NCBI GenBank assembly: GCA_041650995.1
Contig: JBAZJZ010000001.1
Coordinates: forward strand, 149,757 to 213,756
Direction: 5' to 3'
Length of the DNA stretch: 64,000 nt
Source of the DNA: Patescibacteria group bacterium
GTDB lineage: Bacteria; Patescibacteriota; Patescibacteriia; XYB2-FULL-38-15
In this document: piece after piece, positions 4,709-61,660 of the stretch
Numbering within the stretch: position 1 is the stretch's first letter
Layout of the letters: each line of letters opens with the position of its first letter
Notes under the pieces: model-generated
Seen by the model: the letters and a program-made list of their open reading frames with translations, nothing else
The model's database searches: none
Told to the model about the DNA's origin: nothing
Made by a program: the position numbers and the translations under genes

Positions 4709-4927
4709 ATGAAGATTTTTGTAAAAGCAAAACCGAGAGCGCACGAAGAAAAAGTGGAAAAAATTGACGACGCTCATTTTGAAGTGTCGGTTACGGCGCC
4801 GCCGGTCAAAGGTTTAGCAAATCAAGCGATTATCAAAACCATCGCCGAATATTTCAAAATCGCGCCGTCGCGCGTCAGAATTGTTTCAGGATTTACTTCA
4901 CGACAAAAAATTTTAGAAATAATTTAA
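4709..4927 (+). CDS. DUF167/YggU-family small protein
   Basis: Start at ATG 4709 right after the rsmE stop. ~72 aa, KIFVKAKP...VSGFTSRQKILEI matches the UPF0235/YggU pattern. Confidence 0.55.
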   Translation: MKIFVKAKPRAHEEKVEKIDDAHFEVSVTAPPVKGLANQAIIKTIAEYFKIAPSRVRIVSGFTSRQKILEII

Positions 4928-17025: not shown

Positions 17026-17028
17026 TTT

Positions 17029-17091
17029 ATGATTTATAACAAACTTCAAATTTTTACCGACGGCGGCGCGCGAGGTAATCCCGGACCGTCG
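17029..17091 (+). repeat. 63-bp direct duplicate (62/63 identical) of the first 21 codons of rnhA, creating an upstream pseudo-start
   Basis: ATGATTTATAACAAACTTCAAATTTTTACCGACGGCGGCGCGCGAGGTAATCCCGGACCGTC matches 17199..17261. Separated from it by a 107-bp GC-rich hairpin-rich spacer. Confidence 0.8.
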
Positions 17092-17198
17092 GCGCTTCGC
17101 GCCTCTTTAAAACCCCTCGGTTTTAATATTTCCGCTACGGGAAAACTGCGCTTTCCCGACCCCTTTCCCTCGGTCCGGGCGTTATTTTATTTAACATT

Positions 17199-17612
17199 AT
17201 GATTTATAATAAACTTCAAATTTTTACCGACGGCGGCGCGCGAGGTAATCCCGGACCGTCCGGCATCGGCGTTGTGATTTGGTCTGGAAATGAATTAGTT
17301 GGTCAGTATAAAAAATATATTGGCGAGGCGACTAATAATCAGGCCGAATATAAGGCGGTAATTTTGGCTCTTGAAGAAGCCAAAAAATTGAGCCCGACTG
17401 AGCTGGAATTTTTTCTTGATAGTGAATTGGTTGTGAAACAATTAAATCGTGAATATAAAGTAAAGGATAAAGAGCTGGCGCCGCTTTTTGTTCAGGTTTG
17501 GAATTTAAGTATGGGATTTAAAAAGGTGACTTTTACGCACGTGCCGCGAGAGAAAAATAAGGAAGCGGATAAATTAGTTAATGAAGCGATGGATGAGGCG
17601 ACGCGAAAGTGA
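17199..17612 (+). CDS. rnhA: ribonuclease HI
   Basis: 137 aa, TDGGARGNPGPSGIGVVI (D), NNQAEYKAVILAL (E), DSELVV (D), RNase H fold. Confidence 0.85.
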   Translation: MIYNKLQIFTDGGARGNPGPSGIGVVIWSGNELVGQYKKYIGEATNNQAEYKAVILALEEAKKLSPTELEFFLDSELVVKQLNREYKVKDKELAPLFVQVWNLSMGFKKVTFTHVPREKNKEADKLVNEAMDEATRK

Positions 17613-28046: not shown

Positions 28047-28625
28047 ATGAATAAAAAAGGTTTTACACTCGTAGAAATGATGGTGGTGCTCGCGATTTTT
28101 TCCGTGGCAACGGTTGTCATTGTGGATATTTTTATGATGGCGGGCAAAGCGCAACGCCGGACTTTAGCGATAGAAAAAATTCAATCCGACGCGCGATATT
28201 CCATAGAAGCGATTTCTAAAGAAATAAAAATGGATATGATTGATTATGGTTGGGCGGGATACGTCGGCGGAATAACTTTGCCCGAAGATGCGCTTGCTCT
28301 TTTGGACGCGGACAACAATTCGATTATTTTTAAAAAAAGTGAGGATGATTGTCCTACGGGAACGACAAAATGTCTTGTGGTAAGTCTTGATGGCGGATTG
28401 ACCTGGGCGAGCATTACTTCTGAAGGAAATAATGTGGAGGATTTAAAATTTTATATTGATCCGCCGGTTGATCCGTTTGTAATGAATGCGGGAAATACTT
28501 ACGACTCGGATAATCAGCCGAGAGTTACTATTGTTCTTGCAACCAAAGGTATTGGCGGCCGGGCAGAGGAGCAGCAAACGATTTATTTGCAGACAACGGT
28601 GTCGAGTAGAATTTACCGCAGGTAA
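28047..28625 (+). CDS. pseudopilin / minor pilin
   Basis: MNKKG|FTLVEMMVVLAIFSVA. Confidence 0.75.
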   Translation: MNKKGFTLVEMMVVLAIFSVATVVIVDIFMMAGKAQRRTLAIEKIQSDARYSIEAISKEIKMDMIDYGWAGYVGGITLPEDALALLDADNNSIIFKKSEDDCPTGTTKCLVVSLDGGLTWASITSEGNNVEDLKFYIDPPVDPFVMNAGNTYDSDNQPRVTIVLATKGIGGRAEEQQTIYLQTTVSSRIYRR

Positions 28626-28638
28626 TTCAAAATTAAAA

Positions 28639-31601
<2,963 letters not shown>

Positions 31602-31952: not shown

Positions 31953-33374
31953 ATGAAGTTGAATGAGTTAACAATTAAACAAGCCCACGACGGCTTGGTA
32001 AAGAAAAAATTTACATCAGCCGAATTGACTTCGGCCTGTTTGACGCAAATAAAAAAGTTGAACAAAAAATTAAACGCGTTTATTACTGTGATGGAGCGTG
32101 AGGCTTTGGAGCAAGCGGAAGCGGTTGATAAAAAAATCGCCAAGGGTGGGAAGATTGGAATTTTGGAAGGAATACCAATGGCGCTAAAAGATAATATTTT
32201 AGTAAAAGGTTTTCGCGCGACTTCGGGTTCAAAAATTTTAGAAAATTATGTTGCGTCCTACGATGCGACAGTGGTGGAAAAATTGAAGGTGGCCGGAGCA
32301 ATAATTTTGGGAAAAACAAATATGGACGAATTTGCCATGGGCGCTTCAACCGAGACATCGTATTTTGGTCCGACAAAAAATCCGCATGACCCAACTCGTG
32401 TTCCGGGCGGATCGTCTGGCGGTTCGGCGGCGGCCGTGGCGGCAAATATGTGCATTTACGCGCTCGGTTCTGACACTGGCGGTTCAGTGCGCCAGCCGGC
32501 ATCTTTTTGCGGTGTTACGGGTTTAAAGCCGACTTATGGGGCAGTTTCTCGTTATGGTTTGATGGCTATGGCTTCGAGTCTAGATCAAATCGGACCGATT
32601 ACAAAAAGTGCGGAGGACGCGCAAGCGGTGTTTGAAGTAATAGCTGGCCATGATACGTTAGATTCTACTACGGTAGAAAAATCAAAAATAAAAAATCAAA
32701 AATCAAAATTACAATTTGAAATTAAAAATTTAAAAATAGGTATTCCGAAGGAATATTTTATTGGTGGAATAGATAATGGCGTTGAAAAAGTTGCACGAAC
32801 ATCTGTTGAAAAATTAAAAAATGCGGGCGCGAAAATAGTGGATGTCAGTTTGCCACACGCGGAATATGCCTTGGCTGTTTATTATTTAATTATGCCAGCC
32901 GAAGTTTCCGCCAATTTGGCGCGTTTTGATGGCGTGAGATATGGATACCAAACAAAAAAAGCAAAAACACTTTTGGATGTATATTTAAAAACTCGTGCTG
33001 AGGGTTTTGGTGATGAAGTTAAGCGCCGAATAATGCTTGGCACTTATGCCCTGTCGGCTGGCTATTATGATGCGTATTACTTGCAAGCGCAAAAAATGCG
33101 GACATTGATTCGCGAAGATTTTGAGAAAGTTTTTAAAGAAGTCGATTGTATTTTGACGCCGACAGCACCGACCACGGCCTTCAAGATTGGAGAAAAAATA
33201 GATGATCCGTTGACGATGTATCTGTCTGATGTTTTCACTGTTTCAGCGAACGTTGCCGGAGTGCCGGCAATTTCCGTGCCGTGTGGCGAGGTAAAAAAAA
33301 TGCCGGTGGGTTTGCAGATTATGGGAAAATGGTTTGATGAAGAAACAATATTGGAATTAGCAAAATTAATTTAA
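31953..33374 (+). CDS. gatA: Asp/Glu-tRNA amidotransferase subunit A
   Basis: Amidase signature GGSSGGSAAAVA, catalytic K/S/S context, 473 aa. Confidence 0.9.
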   Translation: MKLNELTIKQAHDGLVKKKFTSAELTSACLTQIKKLNKKLNAFITVMEREALEQAEAVDKKIAKGGKIGILEGIPMALKDNILVKGFRATSGSKILENYVASYDATVVEKLKVAGAIILGKTNMDEFAMGASTETSYFGPTKNPHDPTRVPGGSSGGSAAAVAANMCIYALGSDTGGSVRQPASFCGVTGLKPTYGAVSRYGLMAMASSLDQIGPITKSAEDAQAVFEVIAGHDTLDSTTVEKSKIKNQKSKLQFEIKNLKIGIPKEYFIGGIDNGVEKVARTSVEKLKNAGAKIVDVSLPHAEYALAVYYLIMPAEVSANLARFDGVRYGYQTKKAKTLLDVYLKTRAEGFGDEVKRRIMLGTYALSAGYYDAYYLQAQKMRTLIREDFEKVFKEVDCILTPTAPTTAFKIGEKIDDPLTMYLSDVFTVSANVAGVPAISVPCGEVKKMPVGLQIMGKWFDEETILELAKLI

Positions 33375-36954: not shown

Positions 36955-39075
36955 ATGGAGGAAGTCGCATTGTTCGCTGAAACAAATTTTCGGGGGGAGC
37001 GGAAACGTTTCGGCATAAAAACCGACGATCGCCGTCGGCACATGTATATCATCGGTAAAACCGGCATGGGAAAAACTACCACGCTGGAGAATTTGATTAT
37101 CTCCGATATCAGAGCGGGTCGCGGTGTGGGCGTGGTTGATCCACATGGCGACTTAGCGGAAAAAATTCTTGATTTCATCCCGGCGGATAGAATTAACGAC
37201 GTGGTTTATTTTAATCCGGCTGACTTGGATTGGCCGATTGCTTTTAATATTTTGGAATCAATTGATCCAAGATATAAACACCTTGTCGCTTCCGGTATGA
37301 TGGGAGTTTTCAAAAAAATCTGGCCGGATGTTTGGTCGGCCCGAATGGAATATATTTTGAATAATACAATTTTAGCGCTCTTGGATTGTCCGGGGTCCAC
37401 GATGCTTGGCATCAACCGGATGTTGGCCGACAAGGATTATCGGAAAAAAGTTATTCTTAAATTGAAAGATCCGGTGGTTAAAGCTTTTTGGGTTGATGAA
37501 TTTGCAAAATATAATGAAAGATTTGCCACTGAAGCGATCGCACCAATTCAGAATAAAGTTGGTCAGTTTTTATCGGCTTCAATCGTTAGAAATATTGTTG
37601 GCCAGGTGAAATCTACGATTGATATGCGCGAGATAATGGACAGCCAAAAGATTTTTATAATGAATTTAGCAAAAGGCCGGATAGGTGAAGACGCGAGCGC
37701 TCTTTTGGGAAATATGCTTGTTACAAGAATTCAGTTGGCAGCCATGGGGCGCGTTGATATTCCGGAACCTCAGAGAAAAGATTTTTATCTCTATGTCGAC
37801 GAATTTCAAAATTTTGCCACGCTGAGTTTTGCCAATATTTTATCCGAGGCCAGAAAATATCGTTTGAATTTGATTTTAGCTCATCAATATATTGAACAGT
37901 TGGCCGAAGAAGTTGCCGCCGCTGTTTTTGGCAATGTCGGAACAATTGTTGCTTTTCGAATTGGCGCGGCTGATGCCGAGGTTTTGGAAAAGGAATTTTC
38001 ACCAACCTTCACGTCTGAAGATTTGGTAAATCTGACTAAGTACGACACGTACATGAAATTGATGATCAATGGAGTATCATCAACGCCTTTTTCCGCTTCG
38101 GGTTTGCCGCCAGTTATGGGCCCGACTGATAATCGAGATAAAGTCATCCGCGTTTCCCGGGAACGTTATGCCAAGCCGAAGGAAATCGTTGAAGAAAAAA
38201 TTATTCGCTGGAGCGGAATGCAGGTTATTGGCACTGAAGAAAAATCAGATGAAGAACTTGAAGCGGAGATTAAAAAGTCAATTGAAGAAAAAAAGAAAGA
38301 GGCAGAAGGTCTAAAAAGCGGAGTAGCGGAGGCGGGAGAAAAGAAAAAACCGGAAATGTCTCAAGTCGAACTTGAAGAACGTGCCATTACCGCTCGTGAA
38401 GCATTTTTGGAAAAATCAAAAGTTCAAGCGGTTGATTTCTTAAAAATTTTTGCTTCAGAACCAGAAGAAAGGGAAAAGATTATTGAAGAACAAGAAATAA
38501 AAAAGGAAGTGGCTGCTCCAACCGTGATTGTACGCCCGCCGAAAGTTGTGATTAAACCGACAGAACAAATTAATATAGATATACAAATAAAGGAACCGCA
38601 GCGGCATGAAAAGCCGGCAAGGGAAGAAAAAAGGGTGCCGGTTCAAAAACAAGAAAAAGCTGTCCCTCAAAAATCAGCGACAGAGGAAGATCTTCCGTCG
38701 CCCCTGAAGCTGGATGAGCCGGAGGAGAAAAAAATTGCATCTGTTTCGGAAAATCTCCCTACAGTTTCTTTGGATAAAAAATCAACTCCGGCTGTGATGC
38801 CCGCGCCTCCAGCTGTTTTGCCGATTAAAAAAGAAGAAAAGAAAAAAGAAGAGGATAGGGATAAAAAGACATTTGAAGAAAAATTTCCTTACGAAATAAT
38901 TTGCTCGGCTTGCGGAAAACCGGATAGAGTTTCTTTTAACCCCGATCCGAATCGGCCAGTTTATTGTAAGGCCTGTCTCAAAATTGAAAAAGAAAAGGAA
39001 AGGCAGGCGAAGAAAAATAAAAATAGACAGAAACAAGTGCCACGAGCCGCAGGAACGGAGCCGAAGAGTTCATAA
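36955..39075 (+). CDS. VirD4/TraG-like (DUF87/HerA-FtsK superfamily) P-loop ATPase with K/E-rich linker and C-terminal CxxC...CxxC zinc ribbon
   Basis: Walker A IIGKTGMGKTT, Walker B FYLYVDEFQNF, 'TraD/TraG' type DNA-binding core. Terminal CSACGKPDRVSFNPDPNRPVYCKAC. Confidence 0.65.
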   Translation: MEEVALFAETNFRGERKRFGIKTDDRRRHMYIIGKTGMGKTTTLENLIISDIRAGRGVGVVDPHGDLAEKILDFIPADRINDVVYFNPADLDWPIAFNILESIDPRYKHLVASGMMGVFKKIWPDVWSARMEYILNNTILALLDCPGSTMLGINRMLADKDYRKKVILKLKDPVVKAFWVDEFAKYNERFATEAIAPIQNKVGQFLSASIVRNIVGQVKSTIDMREIMDSQKIFIMNLAKGRIGEDASALLGNMLVTRIQLAAMGRVDIPEPQRKDFYLYVDEFQNFATLSFANILSEARKYRLNLILAHQYIEQLAEEVAAAVFGNVGTIVAFRIGAADAEVLEKEFSPTFTSEDLVNLTKYDTYMKLMINGVSSTPFSASGLPPVMGPTDNRDKVIRVSRERYAKPKEIVEEKIIRWSGMQVIGTEEKSDEELEAEIKKSIEEKKKEAEGLKSGVAEAGEKKKPEMSQVELEERAITAREAFLEKSKVQAVDFLKIFASEPEEREKIIEEQEIKKEVAAPTVIVRPPKVVIKPTEQINIDIQIKEPQRHEKPAREEKRVPVQKQEKAVPQKSATEEDLPSPLKLDEPEEKKIASVSENLPTVSLDKKSTPAVMPAPPAVLPIKKEEKKKEEDRDKKTFEEKFPYEIICSACGKPDRVSFNPDPNRPVYCKACLKIEKEKERQAKKNKNRQKQVPRAAGTEPKSS

Positions 39076-46880: not shown

Positions 46881-47429
46881 ATGACTGCGGAAACAAAAAA
46901 ACCTAAAAAAACAACAACCAAGGCTGTTAAACCGGTCGTGAAAAAAGTTGTCAAGAAGAAGATAGCCGAAGGAAAACCCAAAATGGAAGAAGAAAAAGAA
47001 GTGGTGGCGGTTCAAGAAAAAGTAACCGAAGATAAAAAATCGGGATATATTTATGCTATCGGCCGGCGCAAACAAGCTATTGCCACCGTGAAGCTTCATA
47101 AAAATGGTAAGGGGAAAATTACGGTAAACGGAAAATTATATACTGAATATTTTCCAACTGATGAAATGGAACAGATTGTCTCTGGACCATTGAAATCGGT
47201 CGGGCAGGCGGATAAAGTTGATATTGAAGCAAAATCTTTTAGTGGCGGTCTTCGCGGCCAGGCTGAGGCGGTTCGTTTAGGCATTTCCAGAGCTCTCGTT
47301 CAGTTGAATGTAAATTTTAAAAAGAATTTGCGCAAAGCAGGATACTTAACTCGCGACCCGAGAGTAAAAGAAAGAAAGAAACCGGGATTGAAAAAAGCGC
47401 GTCGAGCCCCGCAATGGCAAAAGAGATAG
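46881..47429 (+). CDS. rpsI: 30S ribosomal protein S9 (with Lys-rich N-terminal extension)
   Basis: GRRKQAIATVKL...GGLRGQAEAVRLGISRAL...TRDPRVKERKK. Confidence 0.9.
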   Translation: MTAETKKPKKTTTKAVKPVVKKVVKKKIAEGKPKMEEEKEVVAVQEKVTEDKKSGYIYAIGRRKQAIATVKLHKNGKGKITVNGKLYTEYFPTDEMEQIVSGPLKSVGQADKVDIEAKSFSGGLRGQAEAVRLGISRALVQLNVNFKKNLRKAGYLTRDPRVKERKKPGLKKARRAPQWQKR

Positions 47430-47481
47430 CGCCACGCGCCACAACCGCATAAATTTCCTATAAAATAGCGGAAATTAGCGA

Positions 47482-47514
47482 AACTACACACTCTATGAAG
47501 TGTGTAGTTTTTTG
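47482..47514 (+). terminator. rho-independent terminator after rpsI (actacacac-N7-gtgtgtagt + TTTTTTG)
   Basis: Perfect 9-bp stem and a U-run. Marks the end of the ribosomal operon and the host/phage-like boundary. Confidence 0.75.
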
Positions 47515-47606
47515 TTATGTTCTGCCGGTCTTGAAGGGAGGTTGTCCGCTGTGGATAACCACGAACTACACACTCGCTCTTCAAGCCGGGCAAAAAATAA
47601 TAATTC

Positions 47607-47638
47607 TTAATCTCACACCAAGGTGTGAAGAAAGGAAA
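47607..47638 (+). promoter_or_regulatory. 32-bp operator+RBS module copy 1 (TTAATC-TCACACCAAGGTGTGA-AGAAAGGAAA), 16-bp perfect palindrome
   Basis: Identical 32-mer at 48175..48206. Palindrome TCACACC-AA-GGTGTGA at 47613..47628 ends 12 nt before the ATG. Confidence 0.65.
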
Positions 47639-47640
47639 CT

Positions 47641-47847
47641 ATGGATCAGAAATTTGATCAAGCATTTGTGAATTACAATCTTGATTTGAAAGCGGCACGT
47701 ATCCGGAATGGCACGGATCACGGCCCGGTATCCAACCTCAGCTACAAGTGTGTTGAGTGCGGAAAATTCGTGAGCGGCCGGGTGGTTGATTTTTACGATG
47801 GAGAGGTTGAGAGAGTCCGGTGCTACGAGTGCCAAAATAAAGAATAA
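47641..47847 (+). CDS. small Zn-ribbon protein (CVECGKF...CYECQ)
   Basis: 68 aa, two CxxC pairs. First gene after operator copy 1. Confidence 0.5.
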   Translation: MDQKFDQAFVNYNLDLKAARIRNGTDHGPVSNLSYKCVECGKFVSGRVVDFYDGEVERVRCYECQNKE

Positions 47848-47856
47848 TTTTAAATT

Positions 47857-48159
47857 ATGGAAAATCAAAAATCAGTTTATACGCAGTACGCCGAAGTGGA
47901 CAAACAAATTAAAGATCTCCAAGAAAAACAAAAAATACTTCAGGTTGAGTGCTTAGTAGAAATGGAAAAAAGAAAAGCCACTCAAATAAAAACAGATCTC
48001 GGAATTTTCTCGGTAGCCGAAAGAAGAACCTGGACTTATAGCGCGGACTTGAAAAAAGAAGAAACAAACATCAAGGCCCTAAAAAAGGCGGAGGAAATTT
48101 CGGGCAAGGCGACGTGTGAAATTTCAAAGTCAATGAGATTTCTAAAAGCAAAAGAGTAA
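47857..48159 (+). CDS. hypothetical coiled-coil protein
   Basis: 100 aa, charged/helical. Confidence 0.4.
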   Translation: MENQKSVYTQYAEVDKQIKDLQEKQKILQVECLVEMEKRKATQIKTDLGIFSVAERRTWTYSADLKKEETNIKALKKAEEISGKATCEISKSMRFLKAKE

Positions 48160-48174
48160 AAATTTATAAAAACT

Positions 48175-48206
48175 TTAATCTCACACCAAGGTGTGAAGAA
48201 AGGAAA
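48175..48206 (+). promoter_or_regulatory. 32-bp operator+RBS module copy 2
   Basis: Identical to 47607..47638. Palindrome at 48181..48196. ATG of the next gene at 48210. Confidence 0.65.
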
Positions 48207-48209
48207 AGT

Positions 48210-49022
48210 ATGGCTGATACCATGAAGCCGGAAAATGAAAAAAGAGAACCGACACAAATTGTTAAAGCAGGAGAAAGTTTACCGCCGCAATTGATTGATC
48301 CGGCTAAGCAAGTTGAATTTGCCGGCCGCGCGGCCAAAGTTTTGATGGATATTATCAAAACAAAACCAAAAAAATTAGTTTTAAATGGTGAGCAATACAT
48401 TGAGTTTGAGGATTGGCAGACTGTCGCGCGGTTCTACAACATGACGGTTGGCGTTGACTGGACAAGAGAGATTATGCGTGAAGGAAAAATCCACGGATTT
48501 GAAGCCAAGGCAAATGTCTACAATTCTGGCGGAACAATAATCTCGTCGGCCGAAGCATCTTGTTTAAGGGATGAACCAAAATGGAATACCCGATCAAAAT
48601 ACGAATATAAAAATGGTAAGAGAAATAAAGTTAGTGACGAATTGGTCCCAGAATTTCAGTTAAAAAGTATGGCACAGACGCGGGCCTCTGCCAAGGCGTT
48701 GCGCAACGTGCTGGCCTGGGTTGTAGTGCTGGCTGGGTTCAAGGCCACGCCGGCTGAAGAAATGGATGGTGTAGAGGGTTTTGAGAGCCGGGCCGCAGCG
48801 CCGCCCGCAGGGTCAGTTGCCAGACCGGCAGTAAGACCTCCGGTTGCACCGGTCGCAAAAGATACATCGGCCAATGTTCCGGGAATTCCTGAAGAAAAAT
48901 TAATCTGCGCGATGACCGGTGTTAAAATCACTCAGGAAGAATATGCCTACAGCATGCGCAAATACGGAATGCCTTTAAGCCGGGCCGCGCAAAGAGAACA
49001 GCAGCAAGGAGGGGGAAATTAA
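48210..49022 (+). CDS. putative phage single-strand annealing protein (RecT/ERF-like), tentative
   Basis: 270 aa. Central region (LVLNGEQYIEFEDWQTVARFYNMTV...KSMAQTRASAKALRNVLAWVV) resembles RecT/Redbeta-type SSAPs. Ala/Pro-rich C-terminus. Adjacent to an exonuclease and RusA. Confidence 0.35.
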   Translation: MADTMKPENEKREPTQIVKAGESLPPQLIDPAKQVEFAGRAAKVLMDIIKTKPKKLVLNGEQYIEFEDWQTVARFYNMTVGVDWTREIMREGKIHGFEAKANVYNSGGTIISSAEASCLRDEPKWNTRSKYEYKNGKRNKVSDELVPEFQLKSMAQTRASAKALRNVLAWVVVLAGFKATPAEEMDGVEGFESRAAAPPAGSVARPAVRPPVAPVAKDTSANVPGIPEEKLICAMTGVKITQEEYAYSMRKYGMPLSRAAQREQQQGGGN

Positions 49023-50053: not shown

Positions 50054-50470
50054 ATGACCCCCTCGGAAATTAGAGAAAATTTCCAACTCTACCAGTCCGG
50101 CAAGATCTCGCTTGCGGACTATACTCACCGAATCACGCCGGCCGGTAGAGTTATTGCGCCGGTTCCGCAAACTATGCAGATTCCATTTTTTGACGCCGCA
50201 AAAACTCAAAGAGCAAAACTACTCAATTTATTGCAAGATGGTTTGCCACATTCTACGCCGGAAATTATGCAAAAAGTTTATGGCAACGAGCATTGTGGCA
50301 TCGCGCGAATCGGCGCGCGAATAAACGATCTTGTAAAAGAGGGTTATGTATTCGTTGACGAAAATGGGATTGAACTTAAAGAGAATCGGCGCGGTTGGGC
50401 TGACAAAAATGACAGATCGGTTTACTGGTATTGTCTTAAAGAATTTAGACAAAAATGGTATGCGAAATAA
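50054..50470 (+). CDS. hypothetical protein, possible winged-helix DNA-binding domain
   Basis: 138 aa. LPHSTPEIMQKVYGNEHCGIARIGARINDLVKEGYVFVD resembles a wHTH. Confidence 0.3.
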   Translation: MTPSEIRENFQLYQSGKISLADYTHRITPAGRVIAPVPQTMQIPFFDAAKTQRAKLLNLLQDGLPHSTPEIMQKVYGNEHCGIARIGARINDLVKEGYVFVDENGIELKENRRGWADKNDRSVYWYCLKEFRQKWYAK

Positions 50471-57004: not shown

Positions 57005-57121
57005 TAAAGTTGTAATAATTTTGTGATAGAGTATTTGTGGATAAGTTTTCTTGCGCGGATTTTTTTAAAGTTGTATAGTTAAATTAACAATTTATTTTTC
57101 GGGCTGAGTTGATTACCAATA

Positions 57122-59648: not shown

Positions 59649-61091
59649 ATGCAAAAACTTTTCAATTCAAAGTGGTTTAAAAGAATATCCATTGGCATTT
59701 TAGCCGTGGCTATTTTAATAATTCCACTCATTACGGCCGCGCAGATGGGCGGAGGTATCAGCGTGCCAAATTTCTTTAAGAGAGTAGGCAACGCCATAAA
59801 CCCGACAAACTCCTCCTGGACTCTCGGTTCTTCCGGCACACCTCTTGCCAACGGCTACTTCACGGCGCTCACCGCGGGCACGCTTACAATCTCTTCCACT
59901 GTCTCCGGCGACTTATCAGTGGGGGGCGTGATTAAGGCAAGTGCCGGCACCGCCGCCGCACCTTCCATAACTTTTACGGCCAATCCTGATACCGGATTTT
60001 ATTATAGTGCCGATACTATGGGCGTTGTTATAAACGGAACAATCGTTGGCAGTTTTACCGGATCAGGAGTACGAGCGACACAATTTATGAATACGGCGGC
60101 AGCTCACGTGTCCATTTTGGGCATGAACGCCGACGGAGCTACGGCTTATGCAACAAAAATTGGAAGCAATACGGCATTGACAACCGTCGGAGCAAAAATA
60201 GTTGGATTTTATAATGATGGATTTGTAACCGAAAAAGCGTACATTGATAAAGACGGCAATATGTATTTAGGCGGTGGGGCGATGATTGCCTTAACTTCAA
60301 ATACTGCGGCTTATTTCGCTGGAAACATAAGCAATGGTGCTTCTGCTATCGGAGTACAAATTGGAAATATAAACGCACTAAGCACGGCTGGAGCTAAGAT
60401 TGTAAGTTTTTACTCTGATAACAGAACAACTGAAAAAGCTTATGTAGATTATCTCGGTTCTTTCAATGCCGGTGCAGGGACTGCTTTATTGCCTGCTTAC
60501 TCGTTTGTTGCTGACCCGAATACTGGTATCTATTCGTATGGCGCTGACCAGATTGGATTTACTACAAACGGAGTTGCAAGAGCTTCATTAGACCAAACTG
60601 CTTTCTGGAATAGTACCTTTTATTCATTTGGTGCGGCGACCATTACAATGAAGGGTCAAGTTGCGGATGGAGCAAGTGCTGTTGGGGTTACTCTCGGTTC
60701 TTATGTATCCCAGACAACGGCAGGCGGAAAACTGTTATCTGTCGTAAACAACACGACGGAAAAGGCCTTTATAGACAAAGACGGCGCTTTCGGCTCGGTT
60801 CTCGGCGCGGCGACTATCGCGAACGCCGCTACTACTTTTGCGGCGCAAGGCAATGTAATGACCGTTACCGGCGATGCTGGCGGAAATACCGTGGCGACAA
60901 TTACGGCGGGCGTGGTCGGACAACGGCTCACGATGAAATTTGTTGACGCTTTGGTAACAATTACTGATACGGACGCGGCCACCGCGAACACAGTCAATTT
61001 AAGTGCGGCGTTTACTTCCACGGCGAACGACACGATGACGATTGTTTTTGACGGAAATAAATGGTTTGAAGTTTCTAGAGCGATTAATTAA
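59649..61091 (+). CDS. secreted Gly/Ala/Thr-rich repeat protein (3 x ~80-aa repeats ending TEKA(Y/F)(I/V)D..G)
   Basis: N-terminal signal/[22 protein letters not shown]. Repeats ...[24 protein letters not shown], ...[24 protein letters not shown], ...[22 protein letters not shown]. Confidence 0.5.
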
Positions 61092-61660
61092 TGTTTCAAT
61101 CTTGGATTATGGAATTTGCGATGTTCGGCGCGAGACATTAATTGTAGATTTTCAAGCCGATTATCAAGTTTATTTCCATTATTATGGTGGACAATTTCCG
61201 AAGTAATGAGTTTTCTTTTTAGATGTTTTTCCATGATAAGCCGATGTTCGCTGACCCGTTTTCCTTTAATAGAAAAAACCTTATATCCTTTCACAAGAAA
61301 TCCACTTCCATCATTAATTAATTTTAGGGGATCACCGTGTCGTAAAAATCTATGATAATGCATTGCACAAAATCCATGAGAGCCACCCTTATAAGTATCA
61401 GAAATATTATTGCAATTTTCTATAATACATTTTTTGGGTATAGAGTGGAATTTACGGAGACAAGACATAGAGCAAAATTGTGTTTTTCGTTGTTCAGAAT
61501 GAAAAGTAATATGGCAAAATTTACATTCTTTATCTGGAACTTTATGATGAAGAAGTTTTATTGGATCACCATATCTTCTCCAACGAGTGTAATGCATTAG
61601 ACAAAAATCTTTGATAATTCTCGTCGTGTTGTGGCAATTCTTGATTGAGCAATGTTTCAT
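61088..61660 (-). CDS. HNH endonuclease with duplicated N-terminal Cys/His zinc-finger modules
   Basis: HNH core [25 protein letters not shown]. Two repeats C..NC.N...FC.MHY.R..R.GDP. Confidence 0.7.

Follow-up and report, generated by a model that had tools for sequence, protein, structure and literature searches.

We analyzed a 64,000-nucleotide (nt) stretch of the genome of a Patescibacteria group bacterium (assembly GCA_041650995.1, contig JBAZJZ010000001.1, positions 149,757 to 213,756), called the window in what follows, in which the 32-nt string TTAATCTCACACCAAGGTGTGAAGAAAGGAAA stands in front of two early genes of a prophage. This repeat, which we call the module, reads as a lineage-specific cis-acting mRNA element made of a stable hairpin and a Shine-Dalgarno (SD)-like tract. 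It very probably acts as an RNA hairpin rather than as the double-stranded DNA (dsDNA) operator proposed in a first-pass annotation of the window. Comparison with related phages shows that the stem is maintained by compensatory evolution, that the element is strand-specific and confined to these two cistrons, and that it keeps a constant distance to the ATG. The principle of joining a hairpin to a ribosome-binding site is well known; the module is a new example of this kind of signal, in a phage-host system that is unfamiliar.

The string is found exactly at 47607-47638 and at 48175-48206, both times on the + strand, and the two modules precede genes 1 and 3 of the rightward early operon. As the first-pass annotation had reported, the copies are identical and end 2 nt (copy 1, ATG at 47641) and 3 nt (copy 2, ATG at 48210) before a start codon. 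A third match is absent from the 64-kb window at up to 3 mismatches (0 expected from 100 shuffles). Each module consists of TTAATC, a 16-nt hairpin, and the purine tract AGAAAGGAAA. Copy 1 sits within the 5' leader of a zinc-ribbon gene; its hairpin core (47613-47628, +) is UCACAC-CAAG-GUGUGA, a stem of 6 base pairs (bp) with a YNMG-type tetraloop, and its purine tract, which is SD-like, occupies 47629-47638 (+), 2 nt before the ATG. Copy 2 is intercistronic, before the gene of a single-strand annealing protein, and its core (48181-48196, +) is the same as that of copy 1 in the window phage only, an identity most simply explained by gene conversion between the copies. The annotation had described a perfect 16-bp palindrome. 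The inverted repeat itself stands, in the form 7+2+7 (TCACACC-AA-GGTGTGA), but the central AA is not self-complementary, and read as RNA the same letters give a 6-bp stem with a 4-nt loop. An A/U-rich single-stranded tract lies directly 5' of hairpin 1 (47592-47612, +), with a counterpart before hairpin 2 (48160-48180), and such a tract of at least 14 nt is found upstream of every module in the relatives too. It may be a zone of processing or of transcript start.

Four further phage variants (L007/8/9, L010/11/12, L013, and L149) have the module, at the same two places. The core of copy 1 is CCACGC-CACG-GCGUGG in L007, CCUCAC-UACG-GUGAGG in both L010 and L013, and CCACGC-UACG-GCGUGG in L149. 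The core of copy 2 is UCUCGC-UACG-GCGAGA in L007 and UCUCGC-CACG-GCGAGA in both L010 and L013, while the contig of L149 ends before its second copy. Four distinct stem sequences (UCACAC, CCACGC, UCUCGC, and CCUCAC) are found among the 9 modules. Watson-Crick pairing holds in 48 of the 48 pair cells of the 8-sequence alignment A2, and double changes affect three of the six stem pairs (U-A to C-G, U-A flipped to A-U, and A-U to G-C). None of 500 shuffles matched the observed pairing, and shifted registers pair in 29-69% of cases. The other three stem pairs (positions 2, 4, and 6) are invariant C-G, loop position 2 is an invariant A, and the flank AAUC is likewise invariant across modules. Stems change, but the tract and its spacing are almost fixed: the 3' flank AGAAAGGAAA is unchanged in the 9 distinct modules except for one A-to-G (copy 1 of L010), and the ATG follows it after 2-3 nt in all of them. 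The loops CAAG, CACG, and UACG fit YNMG, a class of stable tetraloops in which Y is C or U and M is A or C (PMC2346598), on the coding (mRNA) strand only. The loop-closing positions, where a longer palindrome would have its seventh pair, are C...G or U...G; in four modules they are T...G in the DNA, a combination that pairs in RNA and not in DNA.

The comparison of the two copies within one genome is the most informative. In L007, L010, and L013, the two copies of one phage differ at 2 of the 6 positions of each arm, and each copy is nevertheless perfectly self-complementary (for example, CCACGC/GCGTGG versus TCTCGC/GCGAGA). Hence, selection acts on pairing and not on the recognition sequence of one protein. 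Sites of one repressor in one genome share their half-site sequence and tolerate internal asymmetry. The copies found here show the opposite pattern to such operator sets, which is why a dsDNA operator is disfavoured.

We scanned about 0.94 Mb of related loci with a covariance model (R1), then searched the window and L153, which holds the late region of the same phage, exhaustively with filters off. The window copies score 67.5 bits (copy 1) and 62.6 bits (copy 2), and exactly two copies per phage were found in the sequence covered. The exhaustive search returned nothing in the 64-kb window beyond these two copies and no module in L153. The model found no module in about 135 loci with more distant relatives of the annealing protein (26-64% identity; genome, metagenome, and viral scans), and the closest of these relatives (L014, 64% identity to the 270-amino-acid (aa) protein) has a plain AT-rich start region. 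A regular-expression search for hairpin, SD tract, and ATG over all loci, and a scan of the window for perfect stems closed by YNMG, gave only the known positions. The first-pass annotation had suggested looking for further copies in the whole contig or genome; in the window and the related loci none came to light outside the two positions per phage. An exact 24-mer of the module is absent from IMG/VR, no Rfam 15 family reaches its gathering score in the window or comes up credibly around the site at E <=10, and GenBank phages give no DNA or protein match. The phage clade is very small in current databases. A degenerate pattern matched only one unrelated IMG/VR phage family of about 60 kb, in which AATCGCUC-CAAG-GGGCG-U-AGAAAGGAAAAUUAUG precedes a 204-aa tail-region gene, in a genome where SD tracts are common (L150 10031-10074 (-), L151 293-336 (-), and L152 10622-10665 (+)). 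The likeness is striking (36 bits with R1), but the search pattern forced most of this score, and we treat it as an unproven analogue or a chance match.

The minimum free energy (MFE) of the hairpin core is -7.2 kcal/mol in the window and ranges from -7.2 to -10.6 kcal/mol over the modules, with a stem pair probability of 0.93-1.00 in native contexts of 60-160 nt (0.93 for copy 1). The conserved 6-bp stem stops 1 nt short of the purine tract, so that the SD tract lies outside it. In MFE folds with 60-100 nt of context, the stem gains 2 bp, and in most modules a lower helix of 4-5 bp forms over AGGAA. This lower helix, in which a pyrimidine tract pairs with AGGAA, is predicted in 8 of the 9 modules and is weak. 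It is built of A-U and G-U pairs of marginal energy, its register shifts between copies without compensatory change, and it is missing in copy 2 of L013 (AAAAAAUAAUA). As an alternative to its operator, the first-pass annotation had considered an RNA hairpin occluding the SD tract, and had suggested relating the hairpin energy to that tract. The RNA hairpin is borne out, with a stable stem of -7.2 kcal/mol; the occlusion is not, as the conserved stem excludes the SD tract and only the weak, non-conserved lower helix touches it. The SD nucleotides are thus not inside a conserved helix, as they are in SD-sequestering hairpins and RNA thermometers. Nor is the hairpin an intrinsic terminator: it is followed by AGAAAGGAAA instead of a U-tract, and a terminator scan does not call it on the + strand. 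We also considered an insulator role, in which the hairpin would keep the ribosome-binding site open, and rejected it as the main role because disrupting the stem in silico did not reduce accessibility.

The start signals of the host help to place the module. A lenient search for SD matches (-20 to -4) was positive in 7 of 47 host genes (about 15%). Host upstream regions are 75% A+T, many with AATAATTAATTTAAAA-like leaders, and most genes of host and phage are without an SD tract, their starts being preceded by an AT-rich motif of the AATAATTAATTTAAAA kind (e.g., at 4914, 33364, 59319, and 61989). Since the host rarely uses SD tracts, the module stands out as a special start signal. Within it, AGAAAGGA is the complement of UCCUUUCU, the tail of 16S rRNA of the Bacillus type, and may pair likewise in the host. 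The mechanism that we favour, tentatively, is that of a 5'-proximal hairpin, protective or marking a processing boundary, coupled to a strong ribosome-loading site. The early transcript would begin, or be cut, within the A/U-rich tract that immediately precedes the hairpin, so that the message segments for the zinc-ribbon and annealing proteins would carry the hairpin at their 5' end or close to it. There it could block 5'-end-dependent decay, and the adjoining purine tract could recruit and hold the 30S subunit. The outcome would be messages that last long and are heavily translated, for two proteins of which the phage needs large amounts early in infection.

Several observations weigh against this interpretation. 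The comparison set is small (9 distinct modules from 5 phage variants). The alternate invariant C-G pairs and the loop A could be sequence-specific protein contacts beyond what stability demands. Copy 2 of L013 begins 2 nt past the upstream stop codon and has almost no leader, and the 5'-proximal position of the hairpins is itself an unproven reading of the sequence. Predicted accessibility from the tract to the AUG is 0.43-0.75 with the stem versus 0.54-0.87 with the stem disrupted in silico; since it is slightly lower with the stem, folding gives no sign that the hairpin frees the ribosome-binding site. If AGAAAGGA pairs canonically, the aligned SD spacing to the AUG is 2-3 nt, versus 6-11 nt in the other SD-led genes of this DNA. 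An Rfam scan did not find the host rRNA in the window, and no RNase was found among the ten large host proteins scanned there.

Four other explanations were weighed. The first-pass annotation saw in the repeat a dsDNA operator through which a dimeric repressor, of the CI/Cro type or the winged helix-turn-helix (HTH) protein at 50054-50470, would silence both genes. A 7-bp inverted repeat, as expected of paired half-sites, is indeed present twice in the early region; heteroimmune phages may alter both half-sites jointly and so mimic covariation between phages; and the right prophage end, a possible location of the repressor, lies beyond the window. These points do little for copies that differ within one phage and remain perfectly symmetric, or for a seventh arm position that is T...G in four modules. 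The position of the module is locked to the start codon and not to a promoter, and a simple consensus scan found no sigma-70-like + strand promoter near 47607 or 48175, and none with a -35/-10 pair overlapping either site; the host does have textbook TTGACA-N17-TATAAT promoters. Another conserved box, GTGGATAAC, adjoins the real sigma-70-like early promoter in contigs that carry the attP form of the phage attachment site (see below). No HTH protein reaches threshold in the 47.4-53 kb interval. The proposed regulator, a 138-aa protein, has a sub-threshold match only (HTH_39, E 0.11), and nothing ties it to the site. An operator of this kind is very improbable, and what can reasonably be retained from that model is the co-regulation of the two genes, through one common post-transcriptional signal. 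Just as improbable is that the module is a recombination boundary, i.e., a common start region left by cassette shuffling and serving as a homology patch for gene gain and loss, with no regulatory role. The segment between the copies is variable (its 100-aa gene is whole, truncated, or absent), the 32-nt identity in the window phage suggests conversion, the phage encodes its own annealing protein, and PeSL elements of T4-type phages offer a precedent (PMC2839356). The observed deletions, on the other hand, do not end within the module, repeated compensatory substitutions show selection on the hairpin itself, and neither the promoter nor the terminator that make up a PeSL was found at the module.

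The remaining two explanations accept an RNA hairpin and differ in what acts on it. If a protein bound to the hairpin set the translation of both cistrons, the module would be a translational operator, and the attractive candidate would be the 68-aa zinc-ribbon protein, encoded directly behind copy 1, acting on its own message and on that of the annealing protein. In both copies, the spacing between the hairpin and the adjoining ribosome-binding site is fixed; the invariant C-G pairs (stem positions 2, 4, and 6), the A at loop position 2, and the flank AAUC exceed the needs of stability; and the weak lower helix of 8 of the 9 modules could be opened or closed by a binder. The operon itself encodes a small Cys4 protein, for which Com of phage Mu is a precedent (PMC6483171), and of the two hairpins examined in PMC2346598 one has a YNMG loop, uCACGg. 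Such an operator is a serious rival, if a less probable one than the favoured mechanism; it is weakened in that the zinc-ribbon protein has no similarity to Com (no family match even at E <=10) or to any RNA-binding family, that a relative (L001) has the pair of zinc-ribbon and annealing-protein genes without the module, and that the stem varies freely at three positions, even within one phage. The loop uCACGg is also the enterovirus loop bound by the viral 3C protein. That the hairpins are RNA targets of the 68-aa protein itself, in a self-contained translational circuit Com-like in logic and unrelated in sequence, is conceivable and distinctly unlikely; if true, this circuit would time the production of the zinc-ribbon protein and of a Rad52-type recombinase in a phage of an ultra-small bacterium of the Candidate Phyla Radiation (CPR), in which ribosomes normally initiate on AT-rich leaders devoid of an SD tract. 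Alternatively, the hairpin might nucleate a longer helix between the purine tract and a stretch of pyrimidines further upstream (UUCUU or CUUU), giving a half-closed site opened by ribosomes finishing the upstream gene (for copy 2), by temperature (in a fourU-like way), or by a helicase. This is what the lower helix over AGGAA in most MFE folds would suggest, together with a mean unpaired probability of about 0.5 from tract to AUG that rises upon stem disruption, and the position of L013 copy 2 within the ribosome footprint of the upstream stop codon. The idea is quite improbable in view of that helix, which shifts register without compensatory change, is absent from L013 copy 2, and consists of A-U and G-U pairs of marginal energy. 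Furthermore, copy 1 has no convincing upstream reading frame for coupling, and the strongly conserved upper stem does not touch the SD tract.

The first gene of the prophage, and the first served by a module, encodes the 68-aa zinc-ribbon protein (47641-47847, +; from the list of open reading frames). The first-pass annotation of a Zn-ribbon gene agrees with its two CxxC pairs (Cys4), but the protein belongs to no Pfam family at threshold and gives only generic zinc-ribbon matches below it. It has 3 homologues among 5.8 billion proteins. The second gene (47857-48159, +), between the modules, has a host-type AT-rich start region with no hairpin and behaves as a variable cassette, being present in L007 and L149, truncated in L010, and absent from L013; a single homologue of its 100-aa product was found. 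The third gene (48210-49022, +) encodes the 270-aa annealing protein, which had been called RecT-like. It has no Pfam RecT match and no PDB sequence match. Its AlphaFold model (predicted local distance difference test score 80) matches RAD52/Mgm101 in the PDB by Foldseek (prob 0.99) and, in BFVD, phage proteins named Erf, RecT, and Bet. Since the model matches both groups, the predicted Rad52 fold supports the name single-strand annealing protein at the level of the Rad52 superfamily, and in that wider sense the earlier label holds. In L001, an element of Magasanikbacteria, the zinc-ribbon gene in front of the annealing-protein gene is weakly homologous to the one described here. As this gene pair exists without the hairpin, the zinc-ribbon protein is more likely a partner of the recombinase.

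The prophage follows the host genes for S13, S11, S4, RpoA, L17, L13, and S9, which end at 47429, and spans from this position to beyond 63.5 kb. It encodes a replication-initiator-like protein, an exonuclease, RusA, a ParB-methylase, a portal protein, an HNH nuclease, and an SLT lysin. Its left junction (attL region; 47410-47429, +) comprises the last rpsI codons (..PQWQKR*), which it has in common with the phage attP. Two contigs carry the attP form (L013, 900-1010, and L010, 330-425), with only the last rpsI codons (PQWQKR* or AQWQKR*) and the terminator, preceded by unrelated DNA, and L007 holds a related prophage at the same site in another genome. Taken together, these loci place the integration site in the 3' end of rpsI. 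The intrinsic terminator closing the rpsI operon (47480-47511, +; terminator scan) is on the phage side of the attachment site, and its hairpin recurs with compensated changes after the rpsI-tail homology in L013 and L010. Because the attP-form contigs carry the last codons and the terminator, the phage replaces the end of rpsI and its terminator. A 209-aa protein encoded beside attP in L013 was considered as the integrase and is not recognisable as one. In the late operon, otherwise co-directional, the HNH endonuclease gene (61088-61660, -) lies on the opposite strand and resembles an inserted gene of the homing type.

A structured leader (47523-47591, +), separate from the module, is found between the terminator and copy 1 and has an outer stem and an inner 8-bp hairpin (47540-47560). 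The fold of leader and module together (47516-47645) has an energy of -42.4 kcal/mol (z -4.5 versus shuffles). The leader is kept with some covariation in L007, L013, L149, L010, and the distant L001, including an A-U/U-A swap in the outer stem, and has no Rfam match. Its inner hairpin carries TGTGGATAA at 47550-47558. This box, TGTGGATAA(C), is the reverse complement of the DnaA-box consensus TTATCCACA. It is found 3 times in the window (47550-47558, 57036-57044, and 43039-47) versus 0.45 expected, the occurrence at 57036 standing before the portal gene, and also in L013 (~806), L010 (~236), L003 (~1079), and L001 (~5565). In L013, L010, and L003, the same box, GTGGATAAC, is just upstream of the -35 element of sigma-70-like TTGACA promoters. 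It is a better candidate for an operator than the hairpin, and a better place to seek the regulator. The strong promoters of L013 (823-851) and L010 (251-279), TTGACA-17-TAAATT or TAAAAT, point toward the early operon. In the attP form, this promoter lies about 290 nt upstream of the module, on the far side of attP, and therefore integration would cut it off from the early genes. In the prophage, the stretch from the terminator to copy 1 has no such promoter. A promoter inside the module was considered and not adopted: AT hexamers resembling a -10 are present without any -35, and L013 copy 2 lacks the leader.

The host part of the window contains further features. The start of one host gene falls within a 64-nt direct repeat (17027-17090 and 17197-17260; ATGATTTATAA...), whose copies are 98% identical and lie at a distance of 170 nt. 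A 68-nt AT-rich repeat (28614-28681 and 32669-32736) is 82% identical, and the hairpin UUCUAC-UACG-GUAGAA at 32663 precedes its second copy. At 36955-39075, the host has the gene of a coupling protein of the TrwB/TraG type that contains a treble-clef zinc finger, near type IV pilus/secretion ATPase genes; the coupling protein gene is also present in the genome of L007.

Nearly all that is known of Patescibacteria (CPR) phages comes from metagenomes, and how they control their genes is uncharted (PMC12911398, PMC13578794). The module adds a cleanly supported cis-regulatory RNA motif from a CPR phage, with exact compensatory changes despite the small number of sequences. It sets two early genes apart from every other gene of the phage, in a host that seldom uses SD tracts, and it is short enough for reporter tests. 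More generally, a palindrome beside a ribosome-binding site need not be an operator, a question that is settled here by comparing the two copies of a single genome. As for lysis-lysogeny control in this phage group, the integration into rpsI, the promoter beyond attP, and the GTGGATAAC box offer better handles.

Among known systems, the module shares with CI/Cro-type operators (lambda OR/OL) a short inverted repeat present in more than one copy in the early region. Unlike in lambda, the sites of one phage differ and stay symmetric, are fixed to start codons without promoter overlap, and have no repressor gene found next to them. Hairpins of the lambda nut boxB/N system also occur as two copies in the early transcripts of a temperate phage. 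There, the loop of boxB is a GNRA-like pentaloop, boxA is its partner, and no start codon fixes its position, whereas here a YNMG tetraloop lies at a fixed distance from the AUG, with both copies in one operon. RNA thermometers of the fourU and ROSE types are SD-sequestering hairpins, and the modules resemble them in having a U/C-rich tract that can pair with the AGGA of the purine tract in predicted folds; here this helix is weak, register-shifting, and non-conserved, and the conserved stem leaves out the SD tract. PeSL cassettes of T4-type phages combine a strong sigma-70 promoter with a terminator stem-loop (PMC2839356, PMC4122927). They are alike in being short repeated stem-loop motifs flanking small variable early genes, which could mediate shuffling, but the stem-loop described here lacks both promoter and U-tract and is fused to a ribosome-binding site. 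The likeness to Com/mom of phage Mu (PMC6483171) lies in an operon that also encodes a small Cys4 zinc protein and in a short hairpin immediately upstream of the ribosome-binding site, partly buriable in a neighbouring helix. The differences are the lack of sequence similarity to Com, two candidate target sites versus one in Mu, and a zinc-ribbon gene that also occurs in a relative without the hairpin.

The 5' stabilisers of Gram-positive bacteria and their phages (aprE, SP82, and hbs), which are precedents for the mechanism favoured above, are like the module in the stable hairpin, the purine-rich SD-like tract, or both, that front the message, in a stem that is independent of sequence, and in serving highly expressed genes; one of these precedents is phage-derived. 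The polypurine stabiliser reportedly comes from phage SP82, and STAB-SD of cryIIIA (GAAAGGAGG) belongs to the same class. References listed in PMC3997798 concern this polypurine 5' stabiliser (Hue et al. 1995) and the Bacillus subtilis aprE leader, which is stabilised by a 5' stem-loop together with ribosome binding. On the hbs mRNA, initiating ribosomes at a strong SD tract block RNase J1 (PMC5737220). The module belongs to a Patescibacterium with few SD-led genes, and, unlike in those stabilisers, its hairpin and purine tract are fused at a 1-nt spacing, twice in one operon.

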